Origin: an uncultured Flavobacterium sp. | GTDB taxonomy: Bacteria > Bacteroidota > Bacteroidia > Flavobacteriales > Flavobacteriaceae | Assembly (NCBI GenBank): GCA_964414655.1 | Contig: CAYPXI010000001.1 | Location: 2,984 to 66,983, forward strand | Direction: 5' to 3' | DNA: 64,000 nt | Shown: positions 12,956-45,698 of the stretch, piece by piece | Layout of the letters: each line of letters starts with the position of its first letter | How positions within the stretch are numbered: the stretch's first letter is position 1 | Translations under genes and position numbers: made by a program | The notes under the pieces: generated by a model | The model's input: only the letters and a program-made list of their open reading frames with translations | What the model was told of the DNA's origin: nothing | Databases searched by the model: none

Positions 12956-14266
<1,311 letters not shown>

Positions 14267-14290
14267 AATATAAGACTTTCTTTTTTATTA

Positions 14291-14325
14291 ACCCTTTCAG
14301 AGTTTTAAACTCTGAAAGGGTTTTT
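14291..14325 (+). terminator. Rho-independent terminator after eno
   Basis: ACCCTTTCAGAGT-TTTAA-ACTCTGAAAGGGT followed by T5; near-identical arms recur at 46855. Confidence 0.85.
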
Positions 14326-14340
14326 CTTTAAAACTAATCA

Positions 14341-14406
14341 AATTCTAATTCAAAACCAGCGAATTCTAATTTTAAAAGCCTAGTTTGTAAGAAATTTATA
14401 TATTTA
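14341..14406 (+). promoter_or_regulatory. Candidate LytTR operator plus promoter of the stand-alone LRR gene
   Basis: AATTCTAAT at 14341-14349 and 14362-14370 (9-bp direct repeats with a 12-bp spacer, 21-bp phase). 28 nt downstream lies the -7-like TATATTTA (14399-14406); the ATG is at 14426. Confidence 0.55.
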
Positions 14407-14425
14407 CCATTTAAATTAATTTATT

Positions 14426-16786
14426 ATGAAAAAAATAGTATTCCTTTTGTTGTTTGTTTTTGGAGTAACAAATGCTCAAATTGTAAACATTCCGGATGCA
14501 AATTTTAAAGCGAAATTATTGTCGGCTACTGTTAATAATATTGTGGCTGGAGTTCAAAATTACTATTATTCTGAACCTTCTTGCACAGGAAACGATATAG
14601 GAACCCCAAGTGAACATGTTAAAATAGACACAAACAATGATGGTCAGATTCAATATTCAGAAGCCCAAGTAATTAAATCTCTTAATATTTCTGGTAGTAA
14701 TATAACAAATCTAACAGGAATAGAAGCTTTTACTAATTTACAAGTTTTAAGTTGTTCCCTTAACCAGTTAACTAGTTTGAATTTATCTCAAAATGTAAAT
14801 TTAAGAGTATTAGATTGTGGATTTAATCCAATAACAAATTTTGATGTGTCACAATATCCATCTTTATATTACCTTAATTGTTTTGGGTTACAAACTTCCA
14901 GTTTAGATATTTCCCAAAATTTAAACTTAAAGAGCTTAATATGTGGTAGTCAAATTTTGAGTAACTTAACTCTTTCTCAAAATTTAAAAGTGTTACAATG
15001 TTCTAATTCACCCTTACTAACATCGCTTAGTTTGTCTCAATGTACAAATTTAAAAAGAGTATACATTTCTTATGCCTCTTTAACAACTTTAAATGTTTCG
15101 CTAAATAGTAATTTGATTGATATAACAATATCAAATTTGCCAATATCAAATTTAGATGTTAGTCAAAATAGCTTGTTGTGTTATTTAGGTGTTCAGAACA
15201 CACAAATAGCAACGTTAGATCTTTCTAATAATACTAATTTAGGAAACATAAGTTGTAGTAATAATCAATTGTTGACTTATTTGAATATTAAAAACGGAAG
15301 TTCGCAATATGGATGGCCAGGATCATCAATTTATTCCAATCCAAATTTGCATTTTATTTGTGCAGATGACAATGAAGTTAGTTTTGCGCAAAGTTCTGTA
15401 GGTCCAAATGTTTTAGTAAGTTCCTATTGTTCATTTGTTCCAGGAGGAAATTACAATACAATATCGGGTTCAATATTATTTGATTCTGATTCTAATGGTT
15501 GTGACACATCAGATTTGGCATGGTCCAATATCAAAGTAACTATTAGTAACGGAACTAACCAAGGCTCAAGTTTTACAACCAATTCAGGAAATTATTCGTT
15601 TTTTACACAGTCAGGAAATTTTATTCTAACACCGAATATTGAGAATTCTACTTGGTTTAATTTTTCTCCCGTTACGGCTGAAGTTCCTTTCGCTAATAAT
15701 AACAATAATTCTTTTACTCAAAATTTTTGCCTTTCACCAAATGGTATTCATCAAGATGTTGAAGTAATCATTCTTGCTACTTCAATAATAAGAGCAGGAA
15801 ATAATTCTAATTATCGAATAGTATATAAGAACAAAGGAAATCAAACGCTTTCAGGTATTTTAGAGTTTAACTATAATGATGCTATATTTGATTATGTGTC
15901 TTCTACAGTTATTCCGAATAGTACTGCAACTGGAAGTTTAGGGTTTGATTATACTAATTTAATGCCTTTTGAAACTAGAAGTATAGATGTAACTTTAAAT
16001 TTAAACTCACCTACAGAAACACCTCCAGTAAATATCGGAGATATAATAAATTTGCTGGCTTCTATAACACCAGTTTCTGGTGATGAGATTCCTAATGATA
16101 ATTTATTTTCTTTCAATCAAAACGTTGTTGGCAGTTTAGATCCAAACGATAAAAATTGTTTAGAAGGAACCATTGTTGACTCATCCAAAATTGGTGATTA
16201 TTTGCATTACAATATCAACTTTGAAAATATTGGTAATGCAGCCGCAGAAAATATTGTTGTAAAAGATATGATTGATACCACAAAATTTGACATTACTTCT
16301 TTACAGATTATAAATTCATCACATTCAATGACAACTAGAATTACTGGTAATAAAGTCGAATTTGTATTTGATAACATCAACCTTGATCCAAGCCAACATG
16401 GAAACGTTGCATTCAAAATTAAAACAAAAACTACATTGGTTGAAGGAGATACTGTAACCAATAACGCAAATATTTATTTTGATTACAATTTTCCAATACA
16501 AACCAATATAGCTTCCACCACATTTCAAACGCTTACAAGTGGTCAATTTGAGATTGATAATTCAGTTGGAATTGCGCCTAATCCAACCAAAAACATTGTC
16601 AATATCAATTGTAATAACACTATCCAATCGGTCCAATTGTTTGATGTGCAAGGACGCATTTTGACTACGCAAATTGTAACTAATTCGCAATCAGTATTGG
16701 ATGTTTCTAATTACACTAATGGTATTTATTTTGTAAAAGTAACTACCGGAAAAGGAAGTAAAGTTGAGAAAATTATCAAGGAATAG
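14426..16786 (+). CDS. T9SS-sorted leucine-rich-repeat surface protein (LRR-1)
   Basis: 786 aa. Signal peptide (MKKIVFLLLFVFGVTNAQ), IPDANFKAKLL cap, EF-hand-like loop DTNNDGQIQYSE, about 22-aa LRRs (LxxLxCxxNxLTxLDLSxN), two DUF11-like beta-sandwich regions (YRIVYKNKGNQT; YLHYNINFENIGNAAAENIVVKD), and a C-terminal type A T9SS sorting domain (APNPTKNIVNI...GIYFVKV...KIIKE). Confidence 0.8.
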   Translation: MKKIVFLLLFVFGVTNAQIVNIPDANFKAKLLSATVNNIVAGVQNYYYSEPSCTGNDIGTPSEHVKIDTNNDGQIQYSEAQVIKSLNISGSNITNLTGIEAFTNLQVLSCSLNQLTSLNLSQNVNLRVLDCGFNPITNFDVSQYPSLYYLNCFGLQTSSLDISQNLNLKSLICGSQILSNLTLSQNLKVLQCSNSPLLTSLSLSQCTNLKRVYISYASLTTLNVSLNSNLIDITISNLPISNLDVSQNSLLCYLGVQNTQIATLDLSNNTNLGNISCSNNQLLTYLNIKNGSSQYGWPGSSIYSNPNLHFICADDNEVSFAQSSVGPNVLVSSYCSFVPGGNYNTISGSILFDSDSNGCDTSDLAWSNIKVTISNGTNQGSSFTTNSGNYSFFTQSGNFILTPNIENSTWFNFSPVTAEVPFANNNNNSFTQNFCLSPNGIHQDVEVIILATSIIRAGNNSNYRIVYKNKGNQTLSGILEFNYNDAIFDYVSSTVIPNSTATGSLGFDYTNLMPFETRSIDVTLNLNSPTETPPVNIGDIINLLASITPVSGDEIPNDNLFSFNQNVVGSLDPNDKNCLEGTIVDSSKIGDYLHYNINFENIGNAAAENIVVKDMIDTTKFDITSLQIINSSHSMTTRITGNKVEFVFDNINLDPSQHGNVAFKIKTKTTLVEGDTVTNNANIYFDYNFPIQTNIASTTFQTLTSGQFEIDNSVGIAPNPTKNIVNINCNNTIQSVQLFDVQGRILTTQIVTNSQSVLDVSNYTNGIYFVKVTTGKGSKVEKIIKE

Positions 16787-16805
16787 AGGTTGTTATTTCA
16801 ATTTA

Positions 16806-16839
16806 AAAACCTGATTAATTGTTTTAGTCAGGTTTTTTT
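16806..16839 (+). terminator. Rho-independent terminator after LRR-1
   Basis: AACCTGA / TCAGGTT stem followed by a T-run (runs into the stem's TT; 16833-16839). Confidence 0.8.
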
Positions 16840-16844
16840 ATGCG

Positions 16845-16910
16845 AATTCTAATTCAAAACCATTGAATTCTAAATCACTCTTTTTTCCGACAAATGAAAT
16901 AGTATCTTTG
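16845..16910 (+). promoter_or_regulatory. Candidate LytTR operator plus promoter of the HK1-RR1-LRR operon
   Basis: AATTCTAAT (16845-16853) and AATTCTAAA (16866-16874), 21-bp phase. 28 nt downstream lies a perfect TAnnTTTG box, TATCTTTG (16903-16910); the ATG is at 16928. Confidence 0.55.
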
Positions 16911-16927
16911 AGAAAGGTTTTTAGTTA

Positions 16928-18889
16928 ATGAAAAAACAACTCATTTTATTGTTTTTTTTTATTTCATCCTCTTTCATGTTGGCTCAAAATGAAAGAATGG
17001 ATAGTTTAAACATAGCTTTAAAAAGGGCAAAAAATGATATTGATAAAGTAGAAACACTCAATGCCATTGCTGATGAGTACAAAACTTCTGATCCTCAAAA
17101 AATGTTGCAGTTTGCACAACAAGCATTGCAACTAGCTATAAAAATTAAACACAAAGCGGCCGAAGGAAATGCTTATTTAAATATAGGAAATGCCAATATT
17201 ATTTCGGGAAATTATAGTATTGCATTGCAAAATTTCAATTCGGCTGCTTTTCTTTTTGAAAATCTAAGTAGCGCAAATCCAGAACAAGCCATTGCAATTA
17301 AAAAAGGTTTAGCCAAAGCCTACGGTAGTAAAGGAATCATTTTTTCTGAGCAAAGCAACTACACCAAAGCGTTGCATTTTTATTTGAAATCGGTAAAAAT
17401 CTACGAGGCACTCAATGACCAAGCTCGGTGCGCTACAATTTACAACAACATTGGAATTATTTTTAAATCGCAATCTTCCGATTTTAAAGCCTTAGAGTAT
17501 TTTGTTAAAGCACAAAAAATCAAAGAAAAATTAAATGATCCTACGATTAGCATTACCATTACTAACATAGCCAATTGTTACCTAAAACAAAAAAATTACG
17601 ACAAGGCTTTTGATTATTATATTCAAGCCAAAAAATGGTTTGATAAATTTCCTAATCCTCGTGGGTTAGGCGAGTGGTACAATAATTTTGGTTTGCTTTT
17701 TAAAGAAACAAATAATCACACCAAAGCCATAGAAAATTGGAATTTAGCTATTGCAACTTTTAAATCTATTGATGACAAATTTGGTGTGGCCGACACGTAT
17801 CTTCATTTAGGACAATTGTATTTAGAACAAAATCAGTCTGCAAAAGCAATTGAAATGGCCAAAACAGCCTTGCAGTTATCAACCGAGCTAGGTGTTTTGG
17901 AGCAGCAAATGTTGTCACAAAAATTGTTGAGTGATTGTTACTCCAAACAGAATAATGCTTCATTGGCCTTGTTGCATTACAAATTGTACAATACAGCAAA
18001 AGATAGTTTGGTTAATGAAGAAAATACCCGCAAAAGTGTTGAAGCAGAAATGAATTTTGAATTCGAAAAGCGCGAAGCCATTCATAAAAAAGAACTTGAA
18101 AACAAAGAACTTTTACTGAAAGAAGAATCCAAACGAAGCAAACTTCAGTTGTTTTTTGCGCTATTGTTTGGTGTGTTGTTATTTAGTGTAGGTTTTCTGA
18201 TTTACAGTCGAATTCAGTTGAAAAAAACACTCGTCTTGCAAAAAGAATTGGCCGAATACGAACAAAAAGCATTGCATTTGCAAATGAATCCACATTTTGT
18301 TTTCAATTGTTTGGGTTCAATTTCGAGCTTTATTGTCAATAATGGTAACGAATCGGCAATAAAATACTTGGCTAAGTTTTCAAAACTTATGCGACTGACT
18401 TTAGAATATTCGAAGGAATCCTTAATTCCAATAGACAAAGAAATTGAAGGGTTGCAAAATTACCTCGAACTTGAACAGTTGCGATTCAATAACAAATTTA
18501 GTTTTTCTATTAATAAAAGTAAAGCCATCGAAGACGATATGGCAATTCCACCCTTATTATTGCAACCTTTTGTAGAAAATGCCATCATACATGGAGTAAT
18601 TCCAAAGAAAGAATTGGGAACAATTGCTATTCATTTTTATATTGAAAAAGAACATTTAGTATGCACTGTTGAAGACAACGGAATTGGTTTTCAACAGTCG
18701 CAACTAAATAAAGAAAAAACAGTCGTAATTCATAAGTCAATGGCTCTGGATATTACAAAAAAACGCTTGCAAATGATAGAATCAACCACCAATCAAAAGG
18801 CTGATTTTACCATTGAAGAACTAGTACAAGAAAACCATATTAAAGGAACTAAGGTAGTATTGCATTTACCTATTCAATATTTAAACTAA
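16928..18889 (+). CDS. Exported-TPR sensor histidine kinase, LytS/His_kinase (PF06580-like) type (HK1)
   Basis: 653 aa. Signal-like N-terminus (LILLFFFISSSFMLAQ), about 380 aa of TPR-like repeats, a single TM (LQLFFALLFGVLLFSVGFLIY), LQMNPHFVFNCL motif, and an HATPase_c region (VEDNGIGF). Confidence 0.85.
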   Translation: MKKQLILLFFFISSSFMLAQNERMDSLNIALKRAKNDIDKVETLNAIADEYKTSDPQKMLQFAQQALQLAIKIKHKAAEGNAYLNIGNANIISGNYSIALQNFNSAAFLFENLSSANPEQAIAIKKGLAKAYGSKGIIFSEQSNYTKALHFYLKSVKIYEALNDQARCATIYNNIGIIFKSQSSDFKALEYFVKAQKIKEKLNDPTISITITNIANCYLKQKNYDKAFDYYIQAKKWFDKFPNPRGLGEWYNNFGLLFKETNNHTKAIENWNLAIATFKSIDDKFGVADTYLHLGQLYLEQNQSAKAIEMAKTALQLSTELGVLEQQMLSQKLLSDCYSKQNNASLALLHYKLYNTAKDSLVNEENTRKSVEAEMNFEFEKREAIHKKELENKELLLKEESKRSKLQLFFALLFGVLLFSVGFLIYSRIQLKKTLVLQKELAEYEQKALHLQMNPHFVFNCLGSISSFIVNNGNESAIKYLAKFSKLMRLTLEYSKESLIPIDKEIEGLQNYLELEQLRFNNKFSFSINKSKAIEDDMAIPPLLLQPFVENAIIHGVIPKKELGTIAIHFYIEKEHLVCTVEDNGIGFQQSQLNKEKTVVIHKSMALDITKKRLQMIESTTNQKADFTIEELVQENHIKGTKVVLHLPIQYLN

Positions 18890-18891
18890 TT

Positions 18892-19662
18892 ATGATCTCT
18901 GCAGTATTAATAGATGACGACGGCAACCTTCGCAATGGTATGAAAGGATTACTCAATTTGTACGCACCTCAAATTCAAATTTTGGGCGAGGCTGATAGTG
19001 TAGCAACTGGAATTACAGTCATTGACGAACTAAAACCAGAAGTTGTTTTTTTAGATATTCAGCTCAATGACGGTACTGGTTTTGACATTTTGGAGCAGTT
19101 GGCCTTAAAAAACGGAAAAATTACCTCGCATATAGTATTCATAACAGCTCACGAACAATACGCCATAAAAGCGTTCCGATTCAGTGCATTGGATTTTTTG
19201 CTAAAACCTGTTGACCCAGACGAGTTGAAAAAAGTAATCGGCAAAATCCATGAAGTTTTGGAAAAAAGCAACAACTACGCTCACATTGATTTACTGTTGG
19301 AAAACATCCGAAAGAAAGTCGACAAATTCCAACGGATTGCACTGTCCAATGCTGATGGAATTCATCTGTTTGAAGTAAGTGATATCATTCGGTGTGAAAG
19401 TGAAGACAATTATACCAAGTTTTACATCAAAAACAGTAAACCTATCCTGATTTCAAAAACCTTAAAAGAATACGAAGAATTGCTCACCGAGCACGGATTT
19501 GTCCGTATTCACCAATCGCATTTAATCAATTTGGCCTTTTTGAAATCATTTATTAAAAAAGACGGTGGTTATGTGATTATGGCTGATAATAGTAATTTGC
19601 CAATATCACAGCGCAAGAAAGACAGCCTACAAGAAATTTTAACCAAACAGTTGAACCATTAA
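18892..19662 (+). CDS. LytTR-family response regulator (RR1)
   Basis: 256 aa; receiver (VVFLDIQLNDGTGFD, FITAHEQYA) plus C-terminal LytTR domain (FVRIHQSHLINL); starts 2 nt after HK1. Confidence 0.9.
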   Translation: MISAVLIDDDGNLRNGMKGLLNLYAPQIQILGEADSVATGITVIDELKPEVVFLDIQLNDGTGFDILEQLALKNGKITSHIVFITAHEQYAIKAFRFSALDFLLKPVDPDELKKVIGKIHEVLEKSNNYAHIDLLLENIRKKVDKFQRIALSNADGIHLFEVSDIIRCESEDNYTKFYIKNSKPILISKTLKEYEELLTEHGFVRIHQSHLINLAFLKSFIKKDGGYVIMADNSNLPISQRKKDSLQEILTKQLNH

Positions 19663-19673
19663 TTCGAATCATT

Positions 19674-21929
19674 ATGAAAAAGTACATTTTATTACTAGTA
19701 ATGTTTGTATCGATGAATTCGTTTGCACAAATCGTAGACATTCCAGATGCGAATTTTAAAGCAAAGTTGTTGAGTGCTCAACCTTGGAATAATATTGCAA
19801 AAAATTTATCAGGTGTTTATTTTAAAATTGATTCTAATAACAATGGTCAAATTGAAATTAATGAGGCTCTTCAAGTAAGTTATTTAAGACTATATAATAA
19901 TTTTACACCTTCAATCACAAGTTTATCGGGAGTTGAAAGTTTTATTAATTTAATTCATTTAACTTGTTATAATGAACTTTTACAAACTTTGGACATTTCT
20001 AGTTTATCTTATCTTGAATATTTGAATTGTGGTTTTAATTCTATTAGCAATATTGACGTGTCAAATAATTTAAATTTAAAATATTTACAGTGCGATAGTA
20101 ATCCACCATTAAATAGTTTGAACTTAACTAATAATATAAACCTTGAAACATTATTTATTGAGCAAAATAATATACCTAATCTAAATCTTAATAGTAATGT
20201 TAATCTTAAATCGTTATATTGTTATAATATTAATGTTAATAGTTTGAATTTGAACAATAATATATTGTTGGAAAACTTATCCGTAGGAGCTGATAATTAC
20301 ACTACGCTAGATTTAAGTGAGAACATTAAACTTCATAATCTTAAAATTGTATATTCCCATGTGTCAAATTTAGACTTGAGTAATAATAATTTATTAACAA
20401 ATTTAGAATGTAATAATAATTATAATCTTAATACTTTAAATCTTAAAAATGGAAGTAACGAAAATTTAATTAATTTCACTAATAATTTTTTGAATAGAAT
20501 CTGTGTTGATGAATTACAAATAAATAATGTTTTATCACAAGTTAATTCAAATACTACAGTAAGTACTTATTGTTCGTTTACTCCAGGCGGAAACTACAAT
20601 ACCATCACAGGTTCAATGCTATTTGATGCAAATAATAACGGCTGTGATACCAACGACACACCACAAGCCAACATCAAAATCAACATTAACGATGGGATCA
20701 ATCAAGGAGCGACATTTACTAATAACACTGGAAATTATAATTTCTACACTCAAGCAGGAAGTTTTGATTTGACTCCAAATGTTGAAAACCCAACGTTTTT
20801 TAATTTTTCACCAACTTTAGCTACTATTCCTTTTGCAGATAATAACAATAACACTACAACTCAAAACTTTTGTATTTCTGCTAACGGAGTTCATCCTGAT
20901 GTTGAAGTAGTTATTGCACCCATAATACCAGCTCGACCAGGTTTTGATACGAAGTATCAAATTGTCTACAAAAACAAAGGTAATCTGACCGTTTCAGGTA
21001 ATATTACTTTTTTGTTTGATGATGAGGTTTTAGATTTTGTATTAGCCACCACTTCGCCCGACGCTCAAAGTCAAGGTCTGTTGAATTGGAATTACCAAAA
21101 CCTACAACCATTTGAGAACAGAAGTATTTATATAACTTTAAATGTCAATTCGCCTCAGGAAACTCCTGCAGTTAATATCAACGATCAATTACAATTTGGA
21201 GCAACAATAACCACCGATTTGGCCGACGAAAATAGTGAGGATAATATATTTGTATTCAATCAAACTGTAGTAGGTTCCTACGATCCTAACTATATTACTT
21301 GTATTGAAGGCGAAGTAGTTCCGCCGAGTGAAATTGGCGAGTATTTGCATTACATCATCAATTTTGAAAATACAGGCACAGCCGAAGCTGAAAATATCGT
21401 TGTAAAAGTTGAGGTTGATCCAACAAAATTTGATATTAATTCATTGCAAATGCTCAACACTTCCCACAATTCGTACATTCGTCAAGCGGGCAATAAAGTT
21501 GAATTTATCTTCCAAGAAATTTGGCTTGACACAGGCGGACACGGTAATGTATTGCTCAAAATTAAATCAAAAAATAATCTTTTAGAAGGCGACACTGTAG
21601 CCAAACAAGCCAATATTTACTTCGATTACAATTTCCCTATCGAAACCAATATTGCCAACACTACGTTTGAAGTTTTGAGCAATGGTAATTTTGCAATCGA
21701 TGAATCGATAACTGTTTTCCCTAATCCTACAAATTCAATTGTCAATATCAATTGCAATAACAATATCAAATCGGTCGAGATATACGATGTACAAGGGCGA
21801 TTGTTGCAAACTCAAATTGTAGATAACACTAGTGCAAGTTTGGATATTTCAAACCAAACAAACGGAATTTATTTCGCCAAAATCACTTCCGAAAATGGAG
21901 TAAAAGTCGAAAAAATCAGTAAAGAATAA
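19674..21929 (+). CDS. T9SS-sorted LRR surface protein (LRR-2)
   Basis: 751 aa with the same architecture as LRR-1 (IPDANFKAKLL, DSNNNGQIEINE, LRRs, DUF11-like domains, T9SS CTD); starts 11 nt after RR1. Confidence 0.8.
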   Translation: MKKYILLLVMFVSMNSFAQIVDIPDANFKAKLLSAQPWNNIAKNLSGVYFKIDSNNNGQIEINEALQVSYLRLYNNFTPSITSLSGVESFINLIHLTCYNELLQTLDISSLSYLEYLNCGFNSISNIDVSNNLNLKYLQCDSNPPLNSLNLTNNINLETLFIEQNNIPNLNLNSNVNLKSLYCYNINVNSLNLNNNILLENLSVGADNYTTLDLSENIKLHNLKIVYSHVSNLDLSNNNLLTNLECNNNYNLNTLNLKNGSNENLINFTNNFLNRICVDELQINNVLSQVNSNTTVSTYCSFTPGGNYNTITGSMLFDANNNGCDTNDTPQANIKININDGINQGATFTNNTGNYNFYTQAGSFDLTPNVENPTFFNFSPTLATIPFADNNNNTTTQNFCISANGVHPDVEVVIAPIIPARPGFDTKYQIVYKNKGNLTVSGNITFLFDDEVLDFVLATTSPDAQSQGLLNWNYQNLQPFENRSIYITLNVNSPQETPAVNINDQLQFGATITTDLADENSEDNIFVFNQTVVGSYDPNYITCIEGEVVPPSEIGEYLHYIINFENTGTAEAENIVVKVEVDPTKFDINSLQMLNTSHNSYIRQAGNKVEFIFQEIWLDTGGHGNVLLKIKSKNNLLEGDTVAKQANIYFDYNFPIETNIANTTFEVLSNGNFAIDESITVFPNPTNSIVNINCNNNIKSVEIYDVQGRLLQTQIVDNTSASLDISNQTNGIYFAKITSENGVKVEKISKE
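21141..21929 (+). repeat. 789-bp near-identical segment shared with 24097-24885 (3' ends of LRR-2 and LRR-3)
   Basis: Constant offset of 2956 bp through both stop codons. The last ~440 bp differ at only a handful of positions by eye. One divergent patch lies around 21418-21495. Confidence 0.9.
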
Positions 21930-21933
21930 TTGT

Positions 21934-24885
21934 ATGAAAAAGTTAATTTACATTTTATTGCTGTTGCCTTTTTGTGTAAATGCACAGATTGTAACTATTC
22001 CAGATGCGAATTTTAAAACTGCTTTAATTGCTCAAGGAGTTGACACCAATTCAGATGGTGAAATTCAAGAGATTGAGGCAATGAATGTTACTAGCTTAAC
22101 AGTAGTTAGCGCTGGTGTTGCTGATTTTACAGGGATTCAGAGTTTTACTAATTTGATCGATTTTTTTTGTCACAATAACTTGGCAACCAGTTTGGATGTT
22201 TCTAATTTGAACAACTTGCAACAATTGCGTTGTGAGAACAATTTGATAAGTACGTTAAATCTAACAGGTTGTGCTAGTTTAATGACTTTGGATTGTCATA
22301 ATAATTTGCTAACTAATTTAGATATTGCTGGACTTCAAAATTTAATCGATGTTTATTTGCAAAATAATCCTCAATTAGTGACTATTAATGCATCAGGGTG
22401 TTTAAGTTTAAATCTCTTGAGTTTGTATGAATCTAATGTTTCACCTTCAAGTTTCCCATCACTTCAATCCGTGGATATTTCGAATTGTTCGTCGTTAACT
22501 TATTTTCGAATTGTTGAACCCAATTTAGTCAATTTAAATACTTCGGGTTGTATTAGTTTGAATATAATGGTAATTCAAGACTCAAAGCTCACTTCATTAG
22601 ATTTTACAGATTTATTTGCTTTAAATTCACTTGATTGTTACAATAATTCTTTGTTAACATCTCTCAATTTATCGGGATTGATTTCCTTAACACAACTGAT
22701 TTGTGTAAATAATCAATTAACGACGTTAAATATAGATGGATGCATTAATTTGACTTATTTGGCTTGTTATGATAACCAATTAACCGGCACATTGAATGTG
22801 TCTAATTTTTCGCAATTGTTTGCTTTAGAATGCAATAATAACAATTTCTCATCTATTATTGCTTCCAATTGTGCGAGTTTGGAAACTGTAAATTATTCAC
22901 TAAATCAATTTTTGACTAGTGTTGATTTGTCTAATTGTCCAAGCTTATTAGCTGATGGAGGTTCTGCTGATGACATATCTCAATCGGCCTTACAATCCTT
23001 AAATTTGAGTAATTGTACTTCAATTGAACAAGTCAATGTTGCCACTCCTCAAATACAATCCCTTAATCTATCAGGTTGCGCAGCACTAACCATGGTTAAT
23101 TTATCAGGGTTAGTTTCGCTATCATCACTTGATCTTTCTGGATTGGCTAATTTACAAAATATTGTTGCCAATAATAATTCATTGACTTCGGTTAATTTGA
23201 GTGGATGCCTTAATTTGAATGCCGTTTTTTTCAGTAATAACAATTTGACTTCAATCAATTTTGTTGATTCACCCGCTATAACAGAGATTTATCTCGATAA
23301 CAATCAACTTTCAACATTAGACGTAAGTGGTAATCCCAATTTGCAACTACTTGGTCTTAGCAATAATCCTTTGGTAAATTTATTTGCTAAAAATGGGGCC
23401 AATGAAACAATTAGCTTTTCAGGAAATTCAAACCTTCAATTTGTTTGTGTTGATGAATCACAAGTTGCAACAGTCCAAGCCGATTTGAATAGTGTAGGTT
23501 TAACATCTACGGTTTGTAATTCATATTGTTCATTTACTCCAGGCGGAAATTACAATACTATTTCTGGAACCGTACGATACGATGCCAATAGTGACGGCTG
23601 CGATACTAATGATGCCCTACAATCGTTGGTTCGTATTAATGTTGGTAGTACAAACAACAATCAAGCTGTTTTTACCAATTCTTTAGGCCAGTACCAACGC
23701 TATGTTTTGCAAGGTGATTATAGTGTAACACCTATTTTAGAAAATTCAATTTGGTTTTTCTCAACTCCAACAGATGCAACGGTTTCTTTTCCCAATACCA
23801 ATAGCAACGTTGAGGTCATCGATTTTTGTATTGCGCCAACTCCACCGCATACGGATGTGGAAGTTGTAATTGCCCCGATTGTACCCGCGCGTCCAGGTTT
23901 TAATGCGACTTATTTGATTACTTATAAAAACAAAGGAAATACAATTGTAAATGGTCAAATAGCATTTAATTTTGATGATGCAGTTTTAGACTTTGTTTCA
24001 TCAACCGCAACTCTAACCACTCAAAATTTAGGAGTGTTATTATTTGATTATTCTAATTTACAACCCTTAGAAGTAAGGAGTTTTCAAATTACTTTAAACG
24101 TCAATTCGCCTCAGGAAATTCCTGCAGTCAATATCAATGATGTACTACAATTTGGAGCAATAATAACCACCGATTTGGCCGACGAAAATAGTGAGGATAA
24201 CATATTTGTATTCAATCAAACTGTGGTAGGTTCCTACGATCCTAACGATATTACTTGTATTGAAGGCGAAGTAGTTCCACCAAGTGAAATAGGCGAGTAT
24301 TTGCATTACATCATCAATTTTGAAAATACAGGTACTGCCGAAGCTGAAAATATAGTGGTAAAAGTTGAGGTTGATGAAAATCAGTTTGATATCGATTCAT
24401 TGCAGCTACTAAACACTTCTCATGGTGTTAATGCCAGAATTGATGGCAATAAAGTTGAATTTATCTTCCAAGAAATTTGGCTTGACACAGGCGGACACGG
24501 TAATGTATTGCTCAAAATTAAATCAAAAAATAATCTTTTAGAAGGCGACACTGTAGCCAAACAAGCCAATATTTACTTCGATTACAATTTCCCTATCGAA
24601 ACCAATATTGCCAACACTACGTTTGAAGTTTTGAGCAATGGTAATTTTGCAATCGATGAATCGATAACTGTTTTCCCTAATCCTACAAATTCAATTGTCA
24701 ATATCAATTGCAATAACAATATCAAATCGGTCGAGATATACGATGTACAAGGTCGATTGTTGCAAACTCAAATTGTAGATAACACTACCGCAAGTTTGGA
24801 TATTTCAAATAAAACAAACGGAATTTATTTCGCCAAAATCACTTCAGAAAATGGAGTAAAAGTCGAAAAAATCAGTAAAGAATAG
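21934..24885 (+). CDS. T9SS-sorted LRR surface protein, long LRR array (LRR-3)
   Basis: 983 aa; IPDANFKTALI, DTNSDGEIQEIE, about 20 LRRs, DUF11-like domains, T9SS CTD; starts 4 nt after LRR-2. Confidence 0.8.
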   Translation: MKKLIYILLLLPFCVNAQIVTIPDANFKTALIAQGVDTNSDGEIQEIEAMNVTSLTVVSAGVADFTGIQSFTNLIDFFCHNNLATSLDVSNLNNLQQLRCENNLISTLNLTGCASLMTLDCHNNLLTNLDIAGLQNLIDVYLQNNPQLVTINASGCLSLNLLSLYESNVSPSSFPSLQSVDISNCSSLTYFRIVEPNLVNLNTSGCISLNIMVIQDSKLTSLDFTDLFALNSLDCYNNSLLTSLNLSGLISLTQLICVNNQLTTLNIDGCINLTYLACYDNQLTGTLNVSNFSQLFALECNNNNFSSIIASNCASLETVNYSLNQFLTSVDLSNCPSLLADGGSADDISQSALQSLNLSNCTSIEQVNVATPQIQSLNLSGCAALTMVNLSGLVSLSSLDLSGLANLQNIVANNNSLTSVNLSGCLNLNAVFFSNNNLTSINFVDSPAITEIYLDNNQLSTLDVSGNPNLQLLGLSNNPLVNLFAKNGANETISFSGNSNLQFVCVDESQVATVQADLNSVGLTSTVCNSYCSFTPGGNYNTISGTVRYDANSDGCDTNDALQSLVRINVGSTNNNQAVFTNSLGQYQRYVLQGDYSVTPILENSIWFFSTPTDATVSFPNTNSNVEVIDFCIAPTPPHTDVEVVIAPIVPARPGFNATYLITYKNKGNTIVNGQIAFNFDDAVLDFVSSTATLTTQNLGVLLFDYSNLQPLEVRSFQITLNVNSPQEIPAVNINDVLQFGAIITTDLADENSEDNIFVFNQTVVGSYDPNDITCIEGEVVPPSEIGEYLHYIINFENTGTAEAENIVVKVEVDENQFDIDSLQLLNTSHGVNARIDGNKVEFIFQEIWLDTGGHGNVLLKIKSKNNLLEGDTVAKQANIYFDYNFPIETNIANTTFEVLSNGNFAIDESITVFPNPTNSIVNINCNNNIKSVEIYDVQGRLLQTQIVDNTTASLDISNKTNGIYFAKITSENGVKVEKISKE
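24097..24885 (+). repeat. Second copy of the 789-bp near-identical segment (see 21141-21929)
   Basis: Direct comparison of the two DNA stretches. Confidence 0.9.
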
Positions 24886-24898
24886 TTAGTTGGGTTAT

Positions 24899-24937
24899 CC
24901 GCAGATAGTGTAAGTTAGTCATTGTCTGCGGTTTTTT
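24899..24937 (+). terminator. Rho-independent terminator after LRR-3 (first of two in tandem)
   Basis: CCGCAGA / TCTGCGG stem followed by T6. Confidence 0.8.
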
Positions 24938-24957
24938 ATCCGTAATCAACAATAGTT

Positions 24958-24985
24958 AGCTTGGTGTATACATCAAGCTTTTTTT
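24958..24985 (+). terminator. Second tandem terminator
   Basis: AGCTTG-GTGTATACAT-CAAGCT followed by T7. Confidence 0.75.
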
Positions 24986-24999
24986 ATAGCTTTCAAACA

Positions 25000-25064
25000 A
25001 ATTCTCATTCAATCCAAGCAAATTCTCATTCGTAAATTTTGCACTAAATATTATTTTACATTTG
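25000..25064 (+). promoter_or_regulatory. Candidate LytTR operator (variant half-site) plus promoter of the HK2-RR2-LRR operon
   Basis: AATTCTCAT at 25000-25008 and 25021-25029 (the 12-mer AAATTCTCATTC is repeated perfectly), 21-bp phase. 27 nt downstream lies a perfect TAnnTTTG box, TACATTTG (25057-25064); the ATG is at 25087. Confidence 0.55.
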
Positions 25065-25086
25065 TTTAGAAATAAACTCAAAGCGA

Positions 25087-26988
25087 ATGCAATTCAAAAA
25101 AATATATTGTCTGTTTTTTTTAGTTTTTACCTTCTTTGGGTATTCTCAAAACGACACGGCTTCAATTGAAAGCCTGAAAAAACAATTTGATAATGAAAAA
25201 AACGAAGTAACTCGAGCTAAAGTTGCACTTCAAATTGCTGAGCAAATTAATTATACAAATGTGGATGAAGTGGTTTTTTATGCTCAAAAAGGATATGTAA
25301 TTGCCAAACAAAGCAATGATTTTGAGCAACAAGTAAAAGCTATTCAATTTTTAGGAAATGCAGCAATCATCAAAGGAAATTATAAACAAGCAACTCTTTT
25401 TTTTACCGAAGCAAAAAATATTTTCGAGAACCATCTTCCTCAAAATCAGGAAGGACTAATTAAAACTTTGGGTAGTTTGGGTGTAATAGCTTCTGAGCAA
25501 AGTGATTATAACAAAGCACTAGCGTATTATTTTCAAGGTAAAAAAATAGCCGACAAACACCAACTCGTTGCTTTGCAAATCATTTTGAATAATAATATTG
25601 GAGTGATTTATAAATCGACTAATCGCTACAAAGATGCTTTAAAAATATTGAACGAAACACAATTGTTGCAGCAAAAAACAAAGCATCCAGGAAGAGGGAC
25701 AACTTTGACAAATATTGCGACTATTTACGAACAATTGAACCAAAACAATCAAGCAAAAAAATACCTTGATTTAGCTGATGTCGAATTGAAAAATAGCCAA
25801 GATTATAGAGCAATAGGCGAGTGGAACAACAATATGGGTTCGTATTATTTTAAAACCAATGATGTTAGTAGTGCCGAAAAACATTGGAATGTAGCCTTGT
25901 CAAGTTTTGTTAAAATACAAGATCAATTTGGGAGTTTTGATACGTATTGGTATTTAGCCATTTTAAAAAAGAAACAAAATCAAATTAGTTTGGCATTGCA
26001 AATGGCGCTTAAAGCCAAAGAATTAGCCGATGCAACTCAGGTATTAGAACACCAAACCAAAGTTGAAAAACTCTTGAGCGAATTGTATGAGATGAACAAG
26101 GATGTAAACCTTGCTTTACAACATTTTAAAAAACATCAGGTGTTAAAAGACAGTTTGGTGAATCAAGAAAACATTCGAAAAATGGCGCAAGTCGAGATGG
26201 ATTTTACTTTCGAAAAAGAAAAATTGAACCACCAAGAAGCCTTGAATAAAGCCAATAACAAACAATGGTTTTGGGCATTGGGAATACTTATTTTAGTACT
26301 GCTATTTGGATTGTTTTACCTTCAAAATAAAAAAGAACAGCAAAAACAACAATTGCTACTCGAAAACCAATTGCTCGATTACAAACAAAAAGCCTTGCAT
26401 TTGCAGATGAATCCACACTTTTTGTTCAATTGTTTGGCGGCTATTTCTTCCTATATCATGCAAAATGAAAAAGAAGCTGCAGCAAAGTATTTGGCTATGT
26501 TTTCAAAATTGATGCGATTTACGTTAGAATCATCCAAAGAAAATTGGATTACGATGGATAAAGAGTTGGCGAGTTTAAACCAATATTTATCACTCGAACA
26601 ATTGCGATTAAAAAATGTATTCGATTTCACTATCAATCGTTCCACTTCAGTAGAAGACGATATGCTCGTTCCGCCCATGCTGATTCAACCTTTGGTAGAA
26701 AATGCGATTATTCACGGTATTTTACCCAAGCAAGCCAAAGGAAAAATTGAATTGTATTTTGATGTTCTAGAAGATCAATTGCAAGTAATAGTTAGTGATG
26801 ACGGAATTGGAATTGAAAAATCGATGGAAGAAAAACAAGAACAAGTCGAATTGCATAAATCATTGGCTTTGAGTATCATCAAAGAGCGACTGGAAATGTT
26901 GCAAAAAAACAGCCATCAAAAAACACGATTAGAATACCAACCAACAAGTATAGGAACAAAGGTTTTACTGGTAATTCCGATAAAATAA
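25087..26988 (+). CDS. Exported-TPR sensor histidine kinase, LytS/His_kinase type (HK2)
   Basis: 633 aa, paralogue of HK1. Signal-like N-terminus, TPR region, one TM (WFWALGILILVLLFGLFYL), LQMNPHFLFNCL motif, and an HATPase_c region (VSDDGIGI). Confidence 0.85.
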   Translation: MQFKKIYCLFFLVFTFFGYSQNDTASIESLKKQFDNEKNEVTRAKVALQIAEQINYTNVDEVVFYAQKGYVIAKQSNDFEQQVKAIQFLGNAAIIKGNYKQATLFFTEAKNIFENHLPQNQEGLIKTLGSLGVIASEQSDYNKALAYYFQGKKIADKHQLVALQIILNNNIGVIYKSTNRYKDALKILNETQLLQQKTKHPGRGTTLTNIATIYEQLNQNNQAKKYLDLADVELKNSQDYRAIGEWNNNMGSYYFKTNDVSSAEKHWNVALSSFVKIQDQFGSFDTYWYLAILKKKQNQISLALQMALKAKELADATQVLEHQTKVEKLLSELYEMNKDVNLALQHFKKHQVLKDSLVNQENIRKMAQVEMDFTFEKEKLNHQEALNKANNKQWFWALGILILVLLFGLFYLQNKKEQQKQQLLLENQLLDYKQKALHLQMNPHFLFNCLAAISSYIMQNEKEAAAKYLAMFSKLMRFTLESSKENWITMDKELASLNQYLSLEQLRLKNVFDFTINRSTSVEDDMLVPPMLIQPLVENAIIHGILPKQAKGKIELYFDVLEDQLQVIVSDDGIGIEKSMEEKQEQVELHKSLALSIIKERLEMLQKNSHQKTRLEYQPTSIGTKVLLVIPIK

Positions 26989-26995
26989 TAGTAAA

Positions 26996-27751
26996 ATGAT
27001 AAAAGCCATTCTCATAGAAGACGACGAAATTCTTCGCAAAGGATTACACCAAATGTTGCAGTTGTATGCGCCTAATTTTGAGGTGATTGCTGAGGCTGAT
27101 ACGGTGGCTAATGCAGTTGAAATTTTATCAAAAAACGAACCCGATGTTGTTTTTTTAGACGTTATGCTTATTGGAGGAACTGGTTTTGATGTGTTGAAAA
27201 AATACCAAGAGAAAATCGGTTTTCCGAAGTTTCAATTGGTTTTTATCACGGCTTTTGAAGAATATGCAATTAAAGCATTTCGTATGAGCGCATTAGATTA
27301 TTTGTTAAAACCTATTGATCCCGATGAGTTGAAAGAAGTAATTAGAAAAATTGAAAAGATAAAAGCGCTCAGTCCTGTATCCTTTGAGTTATTGGTGGAT
27401 CAACTGAGCAAGCAAAACACGAACAAAAAAATAGCTTTAGCCACAGCAGAAGGCATTCACATTGTTTTAATTGATGATATCGTTTATGCGCAAGCGGACA
27501 ACAATTACACCACGATTGTGCTCCATAATAAAAAGCAAATTATAGTCTCAAAACCACTAAAAGAATACGAAGATTTATTAGCCGATAAAGGGTTCTTGCG
27601 CATTCATCAATCGTATTTAGTTAACATTCAATACGCACAGTTTTTTGATAAAATGGAACACATGTTACAACTCAACACCAACGATCTTCTGCCAGTGGCA
27701 AGCCGTAAAAAAGAAGTATTGTTGCAAACCATAACCAAATTAACAAGATAG
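26996..27751 (+). CDS. LytTR-family response regulator (RR2)
   Basis: 251 aa; receiver (VVFLDVMLIGGTGFD) plus LytTR domain (FLRIHQSYLVNI). Confidence 0.9.
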   Translation: MIKAILIEDDEILRKGLHQMLQLYAPNFEVIAEADTVANAVEILSKNEPDVVFLDVMLIGGTGFDVLKKYQEKIGFPKFQLVFITAFEEYAIKAFRMSALDYLLKPIDPDELKEVIRKIEKIKALSPVSFELLVDQLSKQNTNKKIALATAEGIHIVLIDDIVYAQADNNYTTIVLHNKKQIIVSKPLKEYEDLLADKGFLRIHQSYLVNIQYAQFFDKMEHMLQLNTNDLLPVASRKKEVLLQTITKLTR

Positions 27752-27776
27752 AAACATAAATAATAAAATAAAGCCT

Positions 27777-29921
27777 ATGAAAACAATTTTCAAACTCATC
27801 GTCTTTTTGTTTTTAGCAAATAGTGTACAAGCCCAAATCATCAATTTCCCAGATGTGAATTTTAAATCAATATTGCTGCAAGCAAGCATTATCAATGAGA
27901 TTGCCTACACTACGTCTAATAATTTTAACAGGATTGACACCAATAATAATGGTGAAATTGAGGTGAGCGAGGCAGCTCTTATTAAACGATTGTATGTTGG
28001 ATCATCTGGCATCACCTCATTGGAAGGAATATCAAGTTTTGTGAACTTGGAATTTATAAGCTGTGGTTATAATTTTATTTCAACCATAGATTTGTCGGGT
28101 TTAAACCAACTAACAGCTATTTGGGCAGATCATAATCAATTGACTAGTATTAATGTAGCTGCATTTCAAAATTTAACAACGCTTTATTTGGGAAATAATC
28201 AACTTCAATCCTTAGATGTATCCAACAATGTTAATCTTAATTATTTGTATATTGAAAATAATCAAATTCAAAGTCTTGATTTATCGAATCTGACCAGTTT
28301 AATAAGATTAGATTTTAGCAATAATCTGATTCAATCCATTGATTTGTCTAACAATGCTACAGCTATGCCTCAATTATTTGGTGCTAATAATAGTCAGTTA
28401 ACCACTTTGTTATTAAAAAACGGATTTACAGAAAACGATGGACTTGTTTTGACGAATTGTCCAAATTTGACCTACATTTGTGGTGATAATGCAGATTTAA
28501 ATTTCCTTCAAGCGTATGTACAAAACATTCTAGGATTGACAAATTGTACTGTAAATTCTTATTGCTCTTTTACGCCAGGTGGCAATTACAACACCATCAC
28601 AGGTGTAACTACTTTTGATAGTGATACTAACGGTTGTGATGTGAACGATTTACCTAAACCCAACATCAAACTCAACATCAACGACGGATCCAATCAAGGT
28701 GTTACTTTTACTAATAATTCGGGAAATTACAATTTTTATACTCAAGCAGGAAGTTTTACTTTAACACCCAATATCGAAAATCCTACTTGGTTTAATTTCT
28801 CGCCAGCAACGGCTACTATTCCTTTTGCCAACAACAATAACAATACAATCACCCAAAACTTTTGCATCGCTCCCATTGGCGTTCACAACGATTTAGAAGT
28901 GGTTATTGCTCCTGTTACACCTGCACGCCCTGGTTTTGATGCAACTTATAAAATAGCATATAAAAACAAAGGTAACCAAACGCTTTCCGGAAATGTAAGT
29001 TTAACATTTGATGATGATAAAACGGACTTTGTTTCTTCCAATCCGAATCCAGATAACTTAAATCTTAACTCACTTTCGTGGAATTATACCAACTTATTGC
29101 CGTTTGAAAATAGAGAAATCCTGTTAACTTTAAATGTAAATGGTCCAACCGAAACTCCAGCAGTCAATATTGGAGATGTATTGTATTTTACAACCGCAAT
29201 AAGTCCAATTGTTGGTGATGAATTACCAAATGATAATGCATTTAACTATGTACAAACGATTGTCGGAAGCTTTGATCCTAACAATATTGAATGTCTCGAA
29301 GGTGAAGTAGTGGCTCCAAGTTATATCGGACAATATTTGCATTATGCAGTCAATTTTGAAAACACAGGCAATTATCCAGCCGAAAATATCGTGGTTAAAA
29401 TAGTCATTGATACCACTAAATACAATATAAATTCGTTGCAATTGCTCAATGTTTCGCATAATTCGTATACTCGAATTTCGGGTAATGTAGTGGAAGTTAT
29501 TTTTCAGCAAATTAATTTAGATTCTGGCGGTCATGGTAATTTATTATTCAAAATTAGAACCAACAACAATCTAGTTCAAGGTAATGCTGTTGCCAAACGC
29601 GCCGATATTTTCTTTGATTACAACGCACCAATTGACACCGGAATGGCCAACACTACTTTTGAAGTGTTAAATAATAGTGTTTTTGAAATTGATAATTCCA
29701 TCTCGATTTATCCCAATCCTACTAATGGAAATGTCAATATCAATTGCAATAATACAATCAAAACAATTGAGTTGTATGATGTACAAGGTCGATTATTACA
29801 AACTCAATTAATCAATCAAGTGCAAACTACAATTGATATTTCGGAAAAATCAAATGGTATTTATTTCCTTAAAATAACTTCAGATAAAGGAAGTAAAGTT
29901 GAAAAAATTATAAAAGACTAA
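27777..29921 (+). CDS. T9SS-sorted LRR surface protein (LRR-4)
   Basis: 714 aa; FPDVNFKSILL, DTNNNGEIEVSE, LRRs, DUF11-like domains, T9SS CTD (YPNPTNGNVNI...GIYFLKI...KIIKD); starts 25 nt after RR2. Confidence 0.8.
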   Translation: MKTIFKLIVFLFLANSVQAQIINFPDVNFKSILLQASIINEIAYTTSNNFNRIDTNNNGEIEVSEAALIKRLYVGSSGITSLEGISSFVNLEFISCGYNFISTIDLSGLNQLTAIWADHNQLTSINVAAFQNLTTLYLGNNQLQSLDVSNNVNLNYLYIENNQIQSLDLSNLTSLIRLDFSNNLIQSIDLSNNATAMPQLFGANNSQLTTLLLKNGFTENDGLVLTNCPNLTYICGDNADLNFLQAYVQNILGLTNCTVNSYCSFTPGGNYNTITGVTTFDSDTNGCDVNDLPKPNIKLNINDGSNQGVTFTNNSGNYNFYTQAGSFTLTPNIENPTWFNFSPATATIPFANNNNNTITQNFCIAPIGVHNDLEVVIAPVTPARPGFDATYKIAYKNKGNQTLSGNVSLTFDDDKTDFVSSNPNPDNLNLNSLSWNYTNLLPFENREILLTLNVNGPTETPAVNIGDVLYFTTAISPIVGDELPNDNAFNYVQTIVGSFDPNNIECLEGEVVAPSYIGQYLHYAVNFENTGNYPAENIVVKIVIDTTKYNINSLQLLNVSHNSYTRISGNVVEVIFQQINLDSGGHGNLLFKIRTNNNLVQGNAVAKRADIFFDYNAPIDTGMANTTFEVLNNSVFEIDNSISIYPNPTNGNVNINCNNTIKTIELYDVQGRLLQTQLINQVQTTIDISEKSNGIYFLKITSDKGSKVEKIIKD

Positions 29922-29940
29922 ACAAGTTTAAAATTACTAA

Positions 29941-29966
29941 AAGCGTTCTTCGGAGCGCTTTTTTTT
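29941..29966 (+). terminator. Rho-independent terminator after LRR-4
   Basis: GCGTTC-TTCG-GAGCGC stem (one G-U pair, UUCG loop) followed by T8. Confidence 0.8.
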
Positions 29967-44917: not shown

Positions 44918-44983
44918 CAAATAACAAAAAGCAAATAACAAATAACAAAAAGCAAATAACAAAAAACAAATAACAAAAAAAAA
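44918..44983. repeat. CAAATAA-based A-rich heptamer/14-mer array
   Basis: CAAATAACAAAAAG-like units start at 44918, 44939, 44953 and 44967. Confidence 0.8.
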
Positions 44984-45008: not shown

Positions 45009-45014
45009 AAATAT

Positions 45015-45694: not shown

Positions 45695-45698
45695 ATCT

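Follow-up and report, generated by a model that had tools for sequence, protein, structure and literature searches.

Based on comparative analysis of a 64,000-nucleotide (nt) stretch of DNA from an uncultured Flavobacterium sp. (GCA_964414655.1, contig CAYPXI010000001.1), we found that two predicted sensor kinase/response regulator pairs and four genes for predicted surface proteins with leucine-rich repeats (LRR) are likely to form a dedicated LytTR circuit. In this circuit the LytTR regulators would control the kinase operons and the LRR adhesins, which are predicted type IX secretion system (T9SS) cargo, from activator-dependent sigma-A promoters. The whole stretch is called the window, all coordinates are window positions, and all open reading frames (ORFs) of the locus are on the + strand. 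The eight ORFs, comprising the kinase genes HK1 and HK2, the regulator genes RR1 and RR2, and the cargo genes LRR-1 to LRR-4, are located between the housekeeping genes eno and gltA. A first-pass annotation of the same DNA had already proposed a dedicated sensory circuit for T9SS LRR proteins, and three observations now speak for it: the adjacency of kinase, regulator and cargo genes is kept in related genomes, an operator is found at the promoters of kinase and cargo genes only, and the triad has been relocated as a unit to other genomic sites.

Operator and promoter architecture

Upstream of LRR-1, HK1 and HK2 we identified a bipartite direct repeat of 35 nt, in which two 10-nt half-sites with the core AATTCTMATT are separated by an 11-nt spacer, giving a period of 21 nt. 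The pattern AATTCTNAWT-N11-AATTCTNAWT, searched with 0 mismatches, had exactly three matches in the 64 kb, all on the + strand and all at these positions, with the finer consensus AATTCT(A/C)A(T/A)T-N11-AATTCT(A/C)A(T/A)T. Operator copy 1 (CAAATTCTAATTCAAAACCAGCGAATTCTAATTTT, 14339..14373, + strand) is an exact match with a weight matrix (PWM) score of 44.6 and the predicted LytTR regulator site of the LRR-1 promoter, in agreement with the earlier proposal that this standalone gene carries the operator. It is followed after 25 nt by a -7 box (TATATTTA, 14399..14406, + strand) with one mismatch to TAnnTTTG, the Bacteroidota -7 promoter element. Copy 2 (CGAATTCTAATTCAAAACCATTGAATTCTAAATCA, 16843..16877, + strand; PWM 43.4) lies upstream of the HK1 operon, with an exact TAnnTTTG box 25 nt further on (TATCTTTG, 16903..16910, + strand), and copy 3 (CAAATTCTCATTCAATCCAAGCAAATTCTCATTCG, 24998..25032, + strand; PWM 38.7) lies upstream of the HK2 operon, with an exact box at 24 nt (TACATTTG, 25057..25064, + strand). 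A scan with the sigma-70 consensus was uninformative (80 sites versus 79 expected), since Bacteroidota promoters are of a different type.

Of 113 strong sites from related loci, 102 had the -7 box 25-26 nt beyond the operator end. At this distance the proximal repeat directly precedes the -33 region, a position expected for the site of an activator. LytTR target sites have been described as two repeats of 9-11 nt, 11-13 nt apart and adjoining the promoter (PMC4847170). The 10-nt repeats, 11-nt spacer and position 25-26 nt upstream of the -7 box correspond to this geometry.

Occurrence in related genomes

For comparison we used 80 Flavobacterium loci with HK1 orthologs and 10-kb flanks, onto which the window proteins were mapped. 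The orthologs came from 80 genomes across the genus Flavobacterium and were 59-79% identical to HK1, and the order carA-eno-[LRR]n-HK-RR-LRR[n]-gltA was nearly universal. We found 79 regulator genes. For 67 of them the sequence continued for 3 kb or more downstream, and all of these (67/67) were followed on the same strand by a gene for a protein with LRR, DUF7619 and a C-terminal domain (CTD) of T9SS cargo. The phylogenetic check of the adjacency between kinase-regulator pairs and LRR+CTD genes thus came out in favor of the first-pass annotation. The loci contained from one to at least five cargo genes, eight had a second kinase-regulator cassette, and the LRR heads were hypervariable among loci, with 28-40% identity and a varying number of repeats.

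The triad of kinase, regulator and cargo, together with the operator, was also detected outside the eno-gltA site, at three further places in genomes that include two genera besides Flavobacterium. At an unrelated site near rnpA (locus L082), an HK2-type cassette has the operator upstream and a 1281-amino acid (aa) LRR/DUF7619/CTD gene downstream, and in a Psychroserpens metagenome-assembled genome (L087) and in Lacinutrix salivirga (L086) the triad adjoins pyrF. In L. salivirga only a 43-aa ORF (8956-9087) was found at the regulator position and the operator upstream of the kinase was intact; the system may be decaying there. A kinase of 49% identity was also found, followed by a regulator and then by a FIDD+DUF7619+CTD protein. 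Winogradskyella schleiferi and Psychroserpens luteolus have the arrangement eno-LRR/DUF7619/CTD-gltA without the kinase-regulator pair, and no operator was found in these two eno-LRR-gltA loci, which serve as a natural negative control.

A 35-nt PWM, built from pattern matches in the HK1-type loci, gave 147 sites when the window and the 80 loci were scanned (approximately 1.6 Mb, both strands) and 0 sites in shuffled sequence. In the 80 loci the sites were located upstream of kinase genes (76), upstream of LRR/DUF7619/CTD genes (49), upstream of T9SS cargo with eight GBD_T9SS_assoc domains and a CTD (2), at frameshifted LRR fragments (2), and at contig ends or mis-called starts (14). In the same loci, eno, gltA and carA had no site upstream, and neither did any of 636 unrelated genes. 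The operator was present within 200 nt upstream of 72 of the 87 HK genes, and also upstream of cargo on the opposite strand in L054 and L068. Among 50 gaps between regulator and LRR gene that were longer than 60 nt, 43 contained an operator for the LRR gene; the 17 gaps that did not exceed 60 nt, the class to which those of the window belong, never had one (0/17), which suggests that these cargo genes are fused into the kinase operon.

Additionally, we scanned metagenome contigs independently of gene content, counting matches with a PWM score of at least 35 as strong. A first, over-specific operator pattern gave 0 matches, and a relaxed one matched in 120 stretches, mostly by chance, as shown by low PWM scores and the lack of a -7 box. 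Seventeen were strong: four at kinase genes, two at LRR genes, three at GBD_T9SS_assoc+CTD genes, two at Cleaved_Adhesin+GEVED+CTD genes, three at copies of a gene for a 376-aa CxxCH lipoprotein, and three at contig ends, two of which were just past eno. Every strong match with enough flanking DNA belonged to, or adjoined, a kinase-regulator-LRR cluster or the carA-eno region. The distribution of sites over the loci and the metagenome points to the kinase operon and the LRR adhesins as the core regulon, and other T9SS cargo appears to be recruited to the predicted regulon in some lineages.

The 376-aa lipoprotein (L138, 3380-4510; L189; L194, 2231-3361) has two CxxCH motifs and no Pfam match. 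Its gene has a strong operator and a -7 box and is directly downstream of an LRR gene in some metagenomic clusters, and it is predicted to be an unexpected member of the regulon without a CTD. In L194 it is followed by genes for FG-GAP/ASPIC+CTD and small CTD proteins. Three second cassettes have an operator of three tandem half-sites with 21-nt spacing and the variant core AATACTAA upstream (L028, 5-60; L035, 2906-2961; L049, 3942-3997). A distant PF06580/LytTR pair of about 36% identity (L098, 876-3700) is followed first by an operator-like repeat, whose -7 box lies 26 nt away, and then by the gene for a lipoprotein of 419 aa. The layout of kinase, regulator, operator and secreted target may be general for such Bacteroidota pairs.

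Predicted operons of the locus

The ORF coordinates and the intergenic gaps of 2, 11, 4, 7 and 25 nt agreed exactly with those annotated before, and all features described in this section are on the + strand. The left syntenic boundary is eno (enolase, 12974..14266, recognized by its translation), which together with carA is kept upstream in related loci and ends in a terminator at 14290-14322 (hairpin of -21.9 kcal/mol, z -7.5). LRR-1 (14426..16786) is a predicted monocistronic gene for an internalin-like T9SS adhesin of 786 aa and is followed by a terminator (16805..16841; -16 kcal/mol, z -5.9) with a U-run. The sensor kinase gene HK1 (16928..18889), recognized by its Pfam domains and an AlphaFold model, is followed after 2 nt by RR1 (18892..19662), which was identified with Pfam and NCBIfam as a response regulator with a receiver (REC) domain, including D55, and a LytTR domain. 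LRR-2 (19674..21929), a predicted T9SS LRR adhesin gene of the HK1 operon, has an 11-nt upstream gap that contains neither hairpin nor operator, and LRR-3 (21934..24885; 983 aa), likewise predicted to encode a T9SS LRR adhesin, is the final gene of this operon after a 4-nt gap. RNA folding placed two tandem intrinsic terminators behind it (24899-24937 and 24958-24986).

The second cassette consists of the TPR (tetratricopeptide repeat)/PF06580 kinase gene HK2 (25087..26988), the REC and LytTR regulator gene RR2 (26996..27751, after a 7-nt gap) and LRR-4 (27777..29921), a T9SS LRR adhesin gene predicted to be co-transcribed with HK2-RR2 across a 25-nt gap without a hairpin. An intrinsic terminator after LRR-4 was again recognized by RNA folding (29939..29966), and gltA (citrate synthase, 30097..31380) forms the right syntenic boundary. 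Terminators, including those noted previously, were thus recovered as U-tailed hairpins after eno, LRR-1, LRR-3 (two) and LRR-4, with z between -2.6 and -7.5, and RNA folding gave no hairpin at the junctions between regulator and LRR genes. Since terminators separate them, and the junctions of 2-25 nt have neither a hairpin nor room for a promoter, three transcription units are predicted: LRR-1 alone, HK1-RR1-LRR2-LRR3, and HK2-RR2-LRR4.

Kinases, regulators and predicted secreted proteins

Both kinases have several TPR matches followed by the Pfam domains PF06580 (His_kinase; 79.4 bits for HK1 and 75.6 bits for HK2, cut-off 25.2) and HATPase_c (28.0 bits for HK2, above the cut-off of 26.4). 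They share the H-box motif LQMNPHF(V/L)FNCL, which as LQMNPHFxFNCL is invariant in 70 homologs, and the residues H450/H456, N551, D583/G585/G587 and G640 are invariant in the same 70-sequence alignment. Each kinase starts with a short hydrophobic N terminus that ends in A/S-Q and has one transmembrane (TM) helix (404-431 in HK1, 392-415 in HK2). The AlphaFold model of HK1 (predicted local distance difference test score, pLDDT, 82) consists of a hydrophobic N-terminal helix, a TPR array, a long helix and the ATPase domain. The array (22-340) has sixteen helices, corresponding to eight TPR pairs, with pLDDT >90, and a continuous helix (344-471) crosses the TM segment into the H-box, which PF06580 covers at 445-524. 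The TPR array of the first-pass annotation is thus found in the model, and its length of about 380 aa had been overestimated: it measures about 320 aa (residues 22-340) and is followed by a helical stalk of about 60 aa.

The TPR sensor is predicted to be periplasmic, as had been proposed, because the kinase core needs cytoplasmic ATP, a single TM helix lies between the two, and a signal-peptide-like N terminus precedes the array. Mean identity to HK1 over the 80 orthologs was 57% in the TPR region, 92% in the PF06580 domain and 65% in the ATPase. An exact-sequence look-up of HK1 gave no match; the database copy (P0001, 637 aa, 100% identical) begins at Met17 (window 16928-16975 region), which removes the signal-peptide-like N terminus conserved in orthologs, so that the TPR domain would look cytoplasmic. 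RR1 and RR2 matched Response_reg with 68.6 and 74.7 bits and LytTR with 66 and 63.5 bits (LytTR cut-off 22.6), and both have D55 within VVFLD. Searches of the PDB with the sequences of HK1 and RR1 gave only generic TPR, REC and LytTR relatives. With PF06580, HATPase_c, the REC aspartate, LytTR and the target-site geometry, the pairs have the predicted features of LytS/LytTR-type systems.

All four cargo proteins matched DUF7619 (PF24595; 134.8-158.4 bits, cut-off 27) and carry a T9SS type A CTD, recognized by TIGR04183 (51-56 bits, cut-off 23) and PF18962 (Por_Secre_tail; 52.6-60.7 bits, cut-off 27). Their N termini have the features of Sec signal peptides, being hydrophobic and ending in A-Q (NAQ, FAQ, NAQ and QAQ in LRR-1 to LRR-4). 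Glutamine at position +1 is typical of Bacteroidota substrates of signal peptidase I. The cargo proteins are therefore predicted to be T9SS type A substrates attached to the surface.

The Pfam LRR matches were below threshold and absent from LRR-2, and all four proteins matched the NCBIfam internalin-J model NF033187 below its cut-off (at most 83 versus 1700 bits). The AlphaFold model of LRR-1 (pLDDT 87) has a cap helix, an LRR solenoid at about 75-332, three beta-domains and the CTD, and cysteines at a spacing of about 21 residues (110, 131, 152, 173 and 192) form a Cys ladder. Its best Foldseek match in the PDB was Listeria InlJ (3bz5, E 9e-15), followed by InlA, InlB and InlH, and its stalk resembled Gram-positive pilins. 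Thus, of the cargo architecture described before, the signal peptide, cap, LRR and CTD were recovered, whereas the two beta-sandwiches are three in the LRR-1 model (344-438, 445-566 and 575-701). The cap motif IPDANFK, thought to be common to all four proteins, reads FPDVNFK in LRR-4, and the EF-hand-like loop agrees with PROSITE PS00018 at positions 1-12 but fails the strict pattern with Ala at position 13 in all four.

Only the last beta-domain of LRR-1 (575-701) matches DUF7619, a predicted CnaA-like isopeptide domain (PMC12617251). K576, D614 and N688 of LRR-1, mapped by position only, align with the published Lys-Asp-Asn triad (PMC12617251), and in the other three cargo proteins of the window the Lys position is Ile and the Asp position Val/Ile. 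Among 49 DUF7619 homologs, those with the Lys had the Asp in 25 of 25 cases and those with Ile/Val at the Lys position kept it in only 7 of 24. This suggests that a cross-linked sub-class exists beside another that lacks the cross-link.

The 3' 830 nt of LRR-2 and LRR-3 (21103-21929 versus 24059-24885), encoding the end of the stalk, DUF7619 and the CTD, are 92.5% identical at the DNA level, and the N-terminal LRR parts of the two proteins are about 31% identical. This pattern indicates a recent gene conversion or partial duplication between the adjacent genes.

Relationship of the two cassettes

The two cassettes had been regarded as a tandem duplication with diverged operators that insulate two parallel circuits, and neither part of this view was upheld. 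HK2 is only 41% identical to HK1 and RR2 only 45% identical to RR1, which is not the mark of a recent duplication. HK2 and RR2 had no ortholog among the 80 HK1-type loci, an HK2-type cassette stands alone at the eno-gltA site in assembly L083, and RR2 groups with the regulators of L082 and L083 in a cluster of their own, at 47% identity to type 1. Close relatives, down to about 76% HK1 identity, appear to have both cassettes on single contigs; L001 (79%) has only one. We also considered whether RR2 corresponds to the second cassettes of L024, L028, L034, L035, L041, L049 and L051, and rejected this, as those regulators cluster with the RR1 type.

The sole difference between the cores of the window operators is A versus C at half-site position 7, which varies freely in type-1 operators, often between the half-sites of one operator. 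Operators of HK2-type orthologs have the same core; the difference is confined to the spacer, in which TCAAAAC is conserved in type 1 and not in the three type-2 examples. With one core common to all these operators, nothing points to insulation of the circuits at the level of DNA, and it is possible at the step between kinase and regulator.

Further sequence features

Two other regions of the window contain repeats. Three heptanucleotide-based tandem arrays at 44918-45744 (CAAATAA x8.6, TCTAACTTCTAAAA x4.6 and TCTAATT x6.7) flank two ORFs on the - strand (45077-45694 and 45741-46406) and may be phase-variable or regulatory repeats. Just past gltA, an ORF of 962 aa (31751-34639) contains three near-identical tandem repeats of 339 nt (113 aa) at 32939-33960, with a 92% match, and has a tail-fibre-like composition rich in G, N and T and a C-terminal coiled coil. 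The corresponding region of L083, two genes downstream of gltA, encodes a Peptidase_S74+CTD protein.

Discussion

In the circuit that we propose, an inner-membrane kinase would sense a probably conserved periplasmic ligand via its eight TPR pairs and autophosphorylate in the PF06580 core, and the phosphate would pass to Asp55 of the cognate REC-LytTR regulator. A phosphorylated regulator dimer would then bind the two 10-base-pair (bp) AATTCTMATT repeats, 21 bp apart and just upstream of the -33 region, and activate its own operon (positive autoregulation) together with the internalin-like adhesin genes. The adhesins, with a Cys-ladder LRR head, an immunoglobulin (Ig)-like stalk and a type A CTD, would leave the cytoplasm through Sec, after which the T9SS would secrete them and fix them to the cell surface. 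A variable set of adhesins would be expected to be displayed in this way, under the control of the signal and in the manner of a switch.

Several points weigh against this interpretation. An above-threshold operator was absent from 15 of the 87 HK genes and from 7 of the 50 long gaps between regulator and LRR genes. The HATPase_c match of HK1 (24.6 bits) fell just under the Pfam cut-off of 26.4, although its ATPase region has an alpha/beta fold in the AlphaFold model. The loci used to train the PWM had been picked for HK1 orthologs, and in view of this bias the independent tests of the operator are the 636 non-target genes and the metagenome scan. The cargo gene is present without the system in other genera, so that the cargo in itself does not depend on the system. 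Finally, the support for the circuit is comparative throughout; we infer from it the binding of the regulator, activation instead of repression, the membrane topology, the adhesin function and the signal.

A wider interpretation, which we consider rather unlikely, is that the eno-gltA site is a hot spot for interchangeable sense-and-stick cassettes, each with a TPR kinase, a LytTR regulator and at least one T9SS adhesin, which respond to distinct cues and activate one another. If so, at least two deep types of TPR sensor (41% identical) would each have their own periplasmic peptide or protein cue, which might be a fragment of the own cargo or of the colonized surface, and shared operators would let the cassettes cross-activate and feed several cues into one variable adhesin coat.

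It is unlikely that the sensed ligand is the cargo itself, with the periplasmic TPR domain binding the LRR adhesins, or their N-cap, stalk or CTD while they await the T9SS, so that the circuit gauges secretion load. In favor of this idea, sensor and cargo would both be in the periplasm, the usual partners of TPR domains are proteins or peptides (PMC11053733), and kinase, regulator and cargo travel as a unit. However, the sensor is conserved (57%) and the LRR heads are hypervariable in identity and repeat number, and one operator serves unrelated heads (FIDD, GBD_T9SS_assoc and Cleaved_Adhesin/GEVED). Co-clustering of sensor and cargo by cassette type was looked for in the C termini of the cargo and not found, as their stalk and CTD regions do not group in this way. 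Sensing of cargo by the TPR domain, which the first-pass annotation had raised as a possibility, is thus mildly disfavoured.

We also find it quite improbable that the regulator represses, or that another factor binds the repeats and the targets of the two-component system lie elsewhere. Binding of the repeats by the regulator is a prediction, and some LytTR regulators can repress, an example being AgrA with its site downstream of the bsaA promoter (PMC4227749). Against this, the repeats keep a fixed position 25-26 nt upstream of the -7 box and upstream of -33, where activators sit, their presence tracks the kinase-regulator pair across genera, and their geometry is canonical for LytTR (PMC4847170). 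That the adjacency is inherited synteny only, with the pair having come to lie beside an old eno-gltA adhesin gene without a regulatory link, is highly improbable: an LRR gene is found at eno-gltA even in genera without the two-component system, so the site is ancient, but the triad kept together at three other genomic sites largely refutes this explanation, and kinase and cargo genes, opposite-strand cargo included (L054, L068), have the operator in common.

The proposed LytTR circuit resembles several known systems in part. E. coli YpdA/YpdB and BtsS/BtsR likewise combine a kinase with PF06580 and HATPase domains, a REC-LytTR regulator and a small dedicated regulon, and the YpdB site, which immediately precedes the target promoter, is a pair of 10-bp direct repeats separated by 11 bp (PMC4847170), the same geometry as found here. 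Whereas YpdA and BtsS sense pyruvate via multi-pass membrane domains and control transporters, the window kinases have a predicted periplasmic TPR array of about 320 aa, a signal peptide and a single TM helix, and their predicted targets are T9SS adhesins and the autoregulated operon. The window regulators scored 123 against the NCBIfam BtsR model (cut-off 246) and 103-117 against LytR (cut-off 375) and are not equivalogs. With one TM helix, the TPR array and equivalog models below cut-off, the pairs also differ from orthologs of LytS, BtsS and YpdA.

FimS of P. gingivalis is an inner-membrane kinase with a periplasmic sensor of about 340 aa and 8 TPR motifs, like HK1 (PMC11053733), and FimS/FimR positively controls a fimbria gene cluster, and thus a surface adhesin, in response to a signal that was unknown in the source paper (PMC11053733). 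In contrast to FimS, the transmitter here is PF06580, the regulator is LytTR and the predicted targets are T9SS cargo instead of type V pili; the NCBIfam FimS model NF053520 matched with 91.8 and 47.4 bits (cut-off 600), in the TPR region only. In S. aureus AgrC/AgrA and Gram-positive LytTR quorum-sensing circuits, a LytTR dimer binds paired direct repeats just upstream of promoters (PMC4227749), and AgrC/AgrA combines positive autoregulation with an output of surface and secreted colonization factors (PMC4227749), as is proposed here. AgrC, however, is a membrane-embedded peptide sensor of the HPK10 type, whereas the present system has a Gram-negative envelope and a predicted periplasmic sensor, and no gene for an autoinducer peptide as in Agr was seen in the window.

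The cargo proteins share a Cys-ladder LRR with an N-terminal cap, an Ig-like stalk and predicted surface display with Listeria InlJ and other internalins and with T9SS LRR proteins of oral Bacteroidota. The likeness to InlJ comprises the cap and the Cys-ladder solenoid and stops short of equivalog similarity and of an LPXTG or GW anchor; the predicted anchor is a T9SS type A CTD instead of LPXTG/sortase, and the stalk includes DUF7619. Within the same genus, F. psychrophilum has an array of T9SS-related LRR surface proteins that respond jointly to the environment, with induction both in stationary phase and upon exposure to fish plasma (PMC9723704 with its supplement). We considered whether this 17-gene array is the present locus and rejected it: the array has another position and other flanks and no adjacent two-component system. 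Its gltA is about 2.2 Mb away, the flanks shown are a glycosyltransferase and a transmembrane protein, and its proteins are shorter (about 330-530 aa). No regulator was assigned to the array in the papers found.

Bacteroidota genomes contain very many PF06580/LytTR pairs with periplasmic TPR sensors. We found no assigned regulon for such pairs in the searchable papers, and full-text searches gave no paper tying LytTR to T9SS cargo or LRR proteins in Flavobacteriia. To our knowledge, the only regulators known until now in connection with the T9SS were those of the secretion machinery itself. PorX/PorY are regulators of the T9SS machinery (PMC5445135). LytS/LytTR systems with direct-repeat operators and autoregulation are known, as are T9SS-secreted internalin-like LRR proteins; the new element is that a periplasmic TPR sensor and a LytTR output are predicted to be joined to a defined, deeply conserved regulon of T9SS adhesins with its operator.

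The present analysis provides the first predicted target genes for the widespread TPR-LytS/LytTR sensor class. One conserved subfamily gains a candidate operator sequence, a promoter architecture, a target set of internalin-like and other T9SS-CTD surface proteins, and natural controls in the form of genomes that have only the cargo. Signal transduction would thereby be linked to the choice of T9SS cargo, and this may help to explain the condition-dependent expression of adhesins in fish-pathogenic and environmental flavobacteria.

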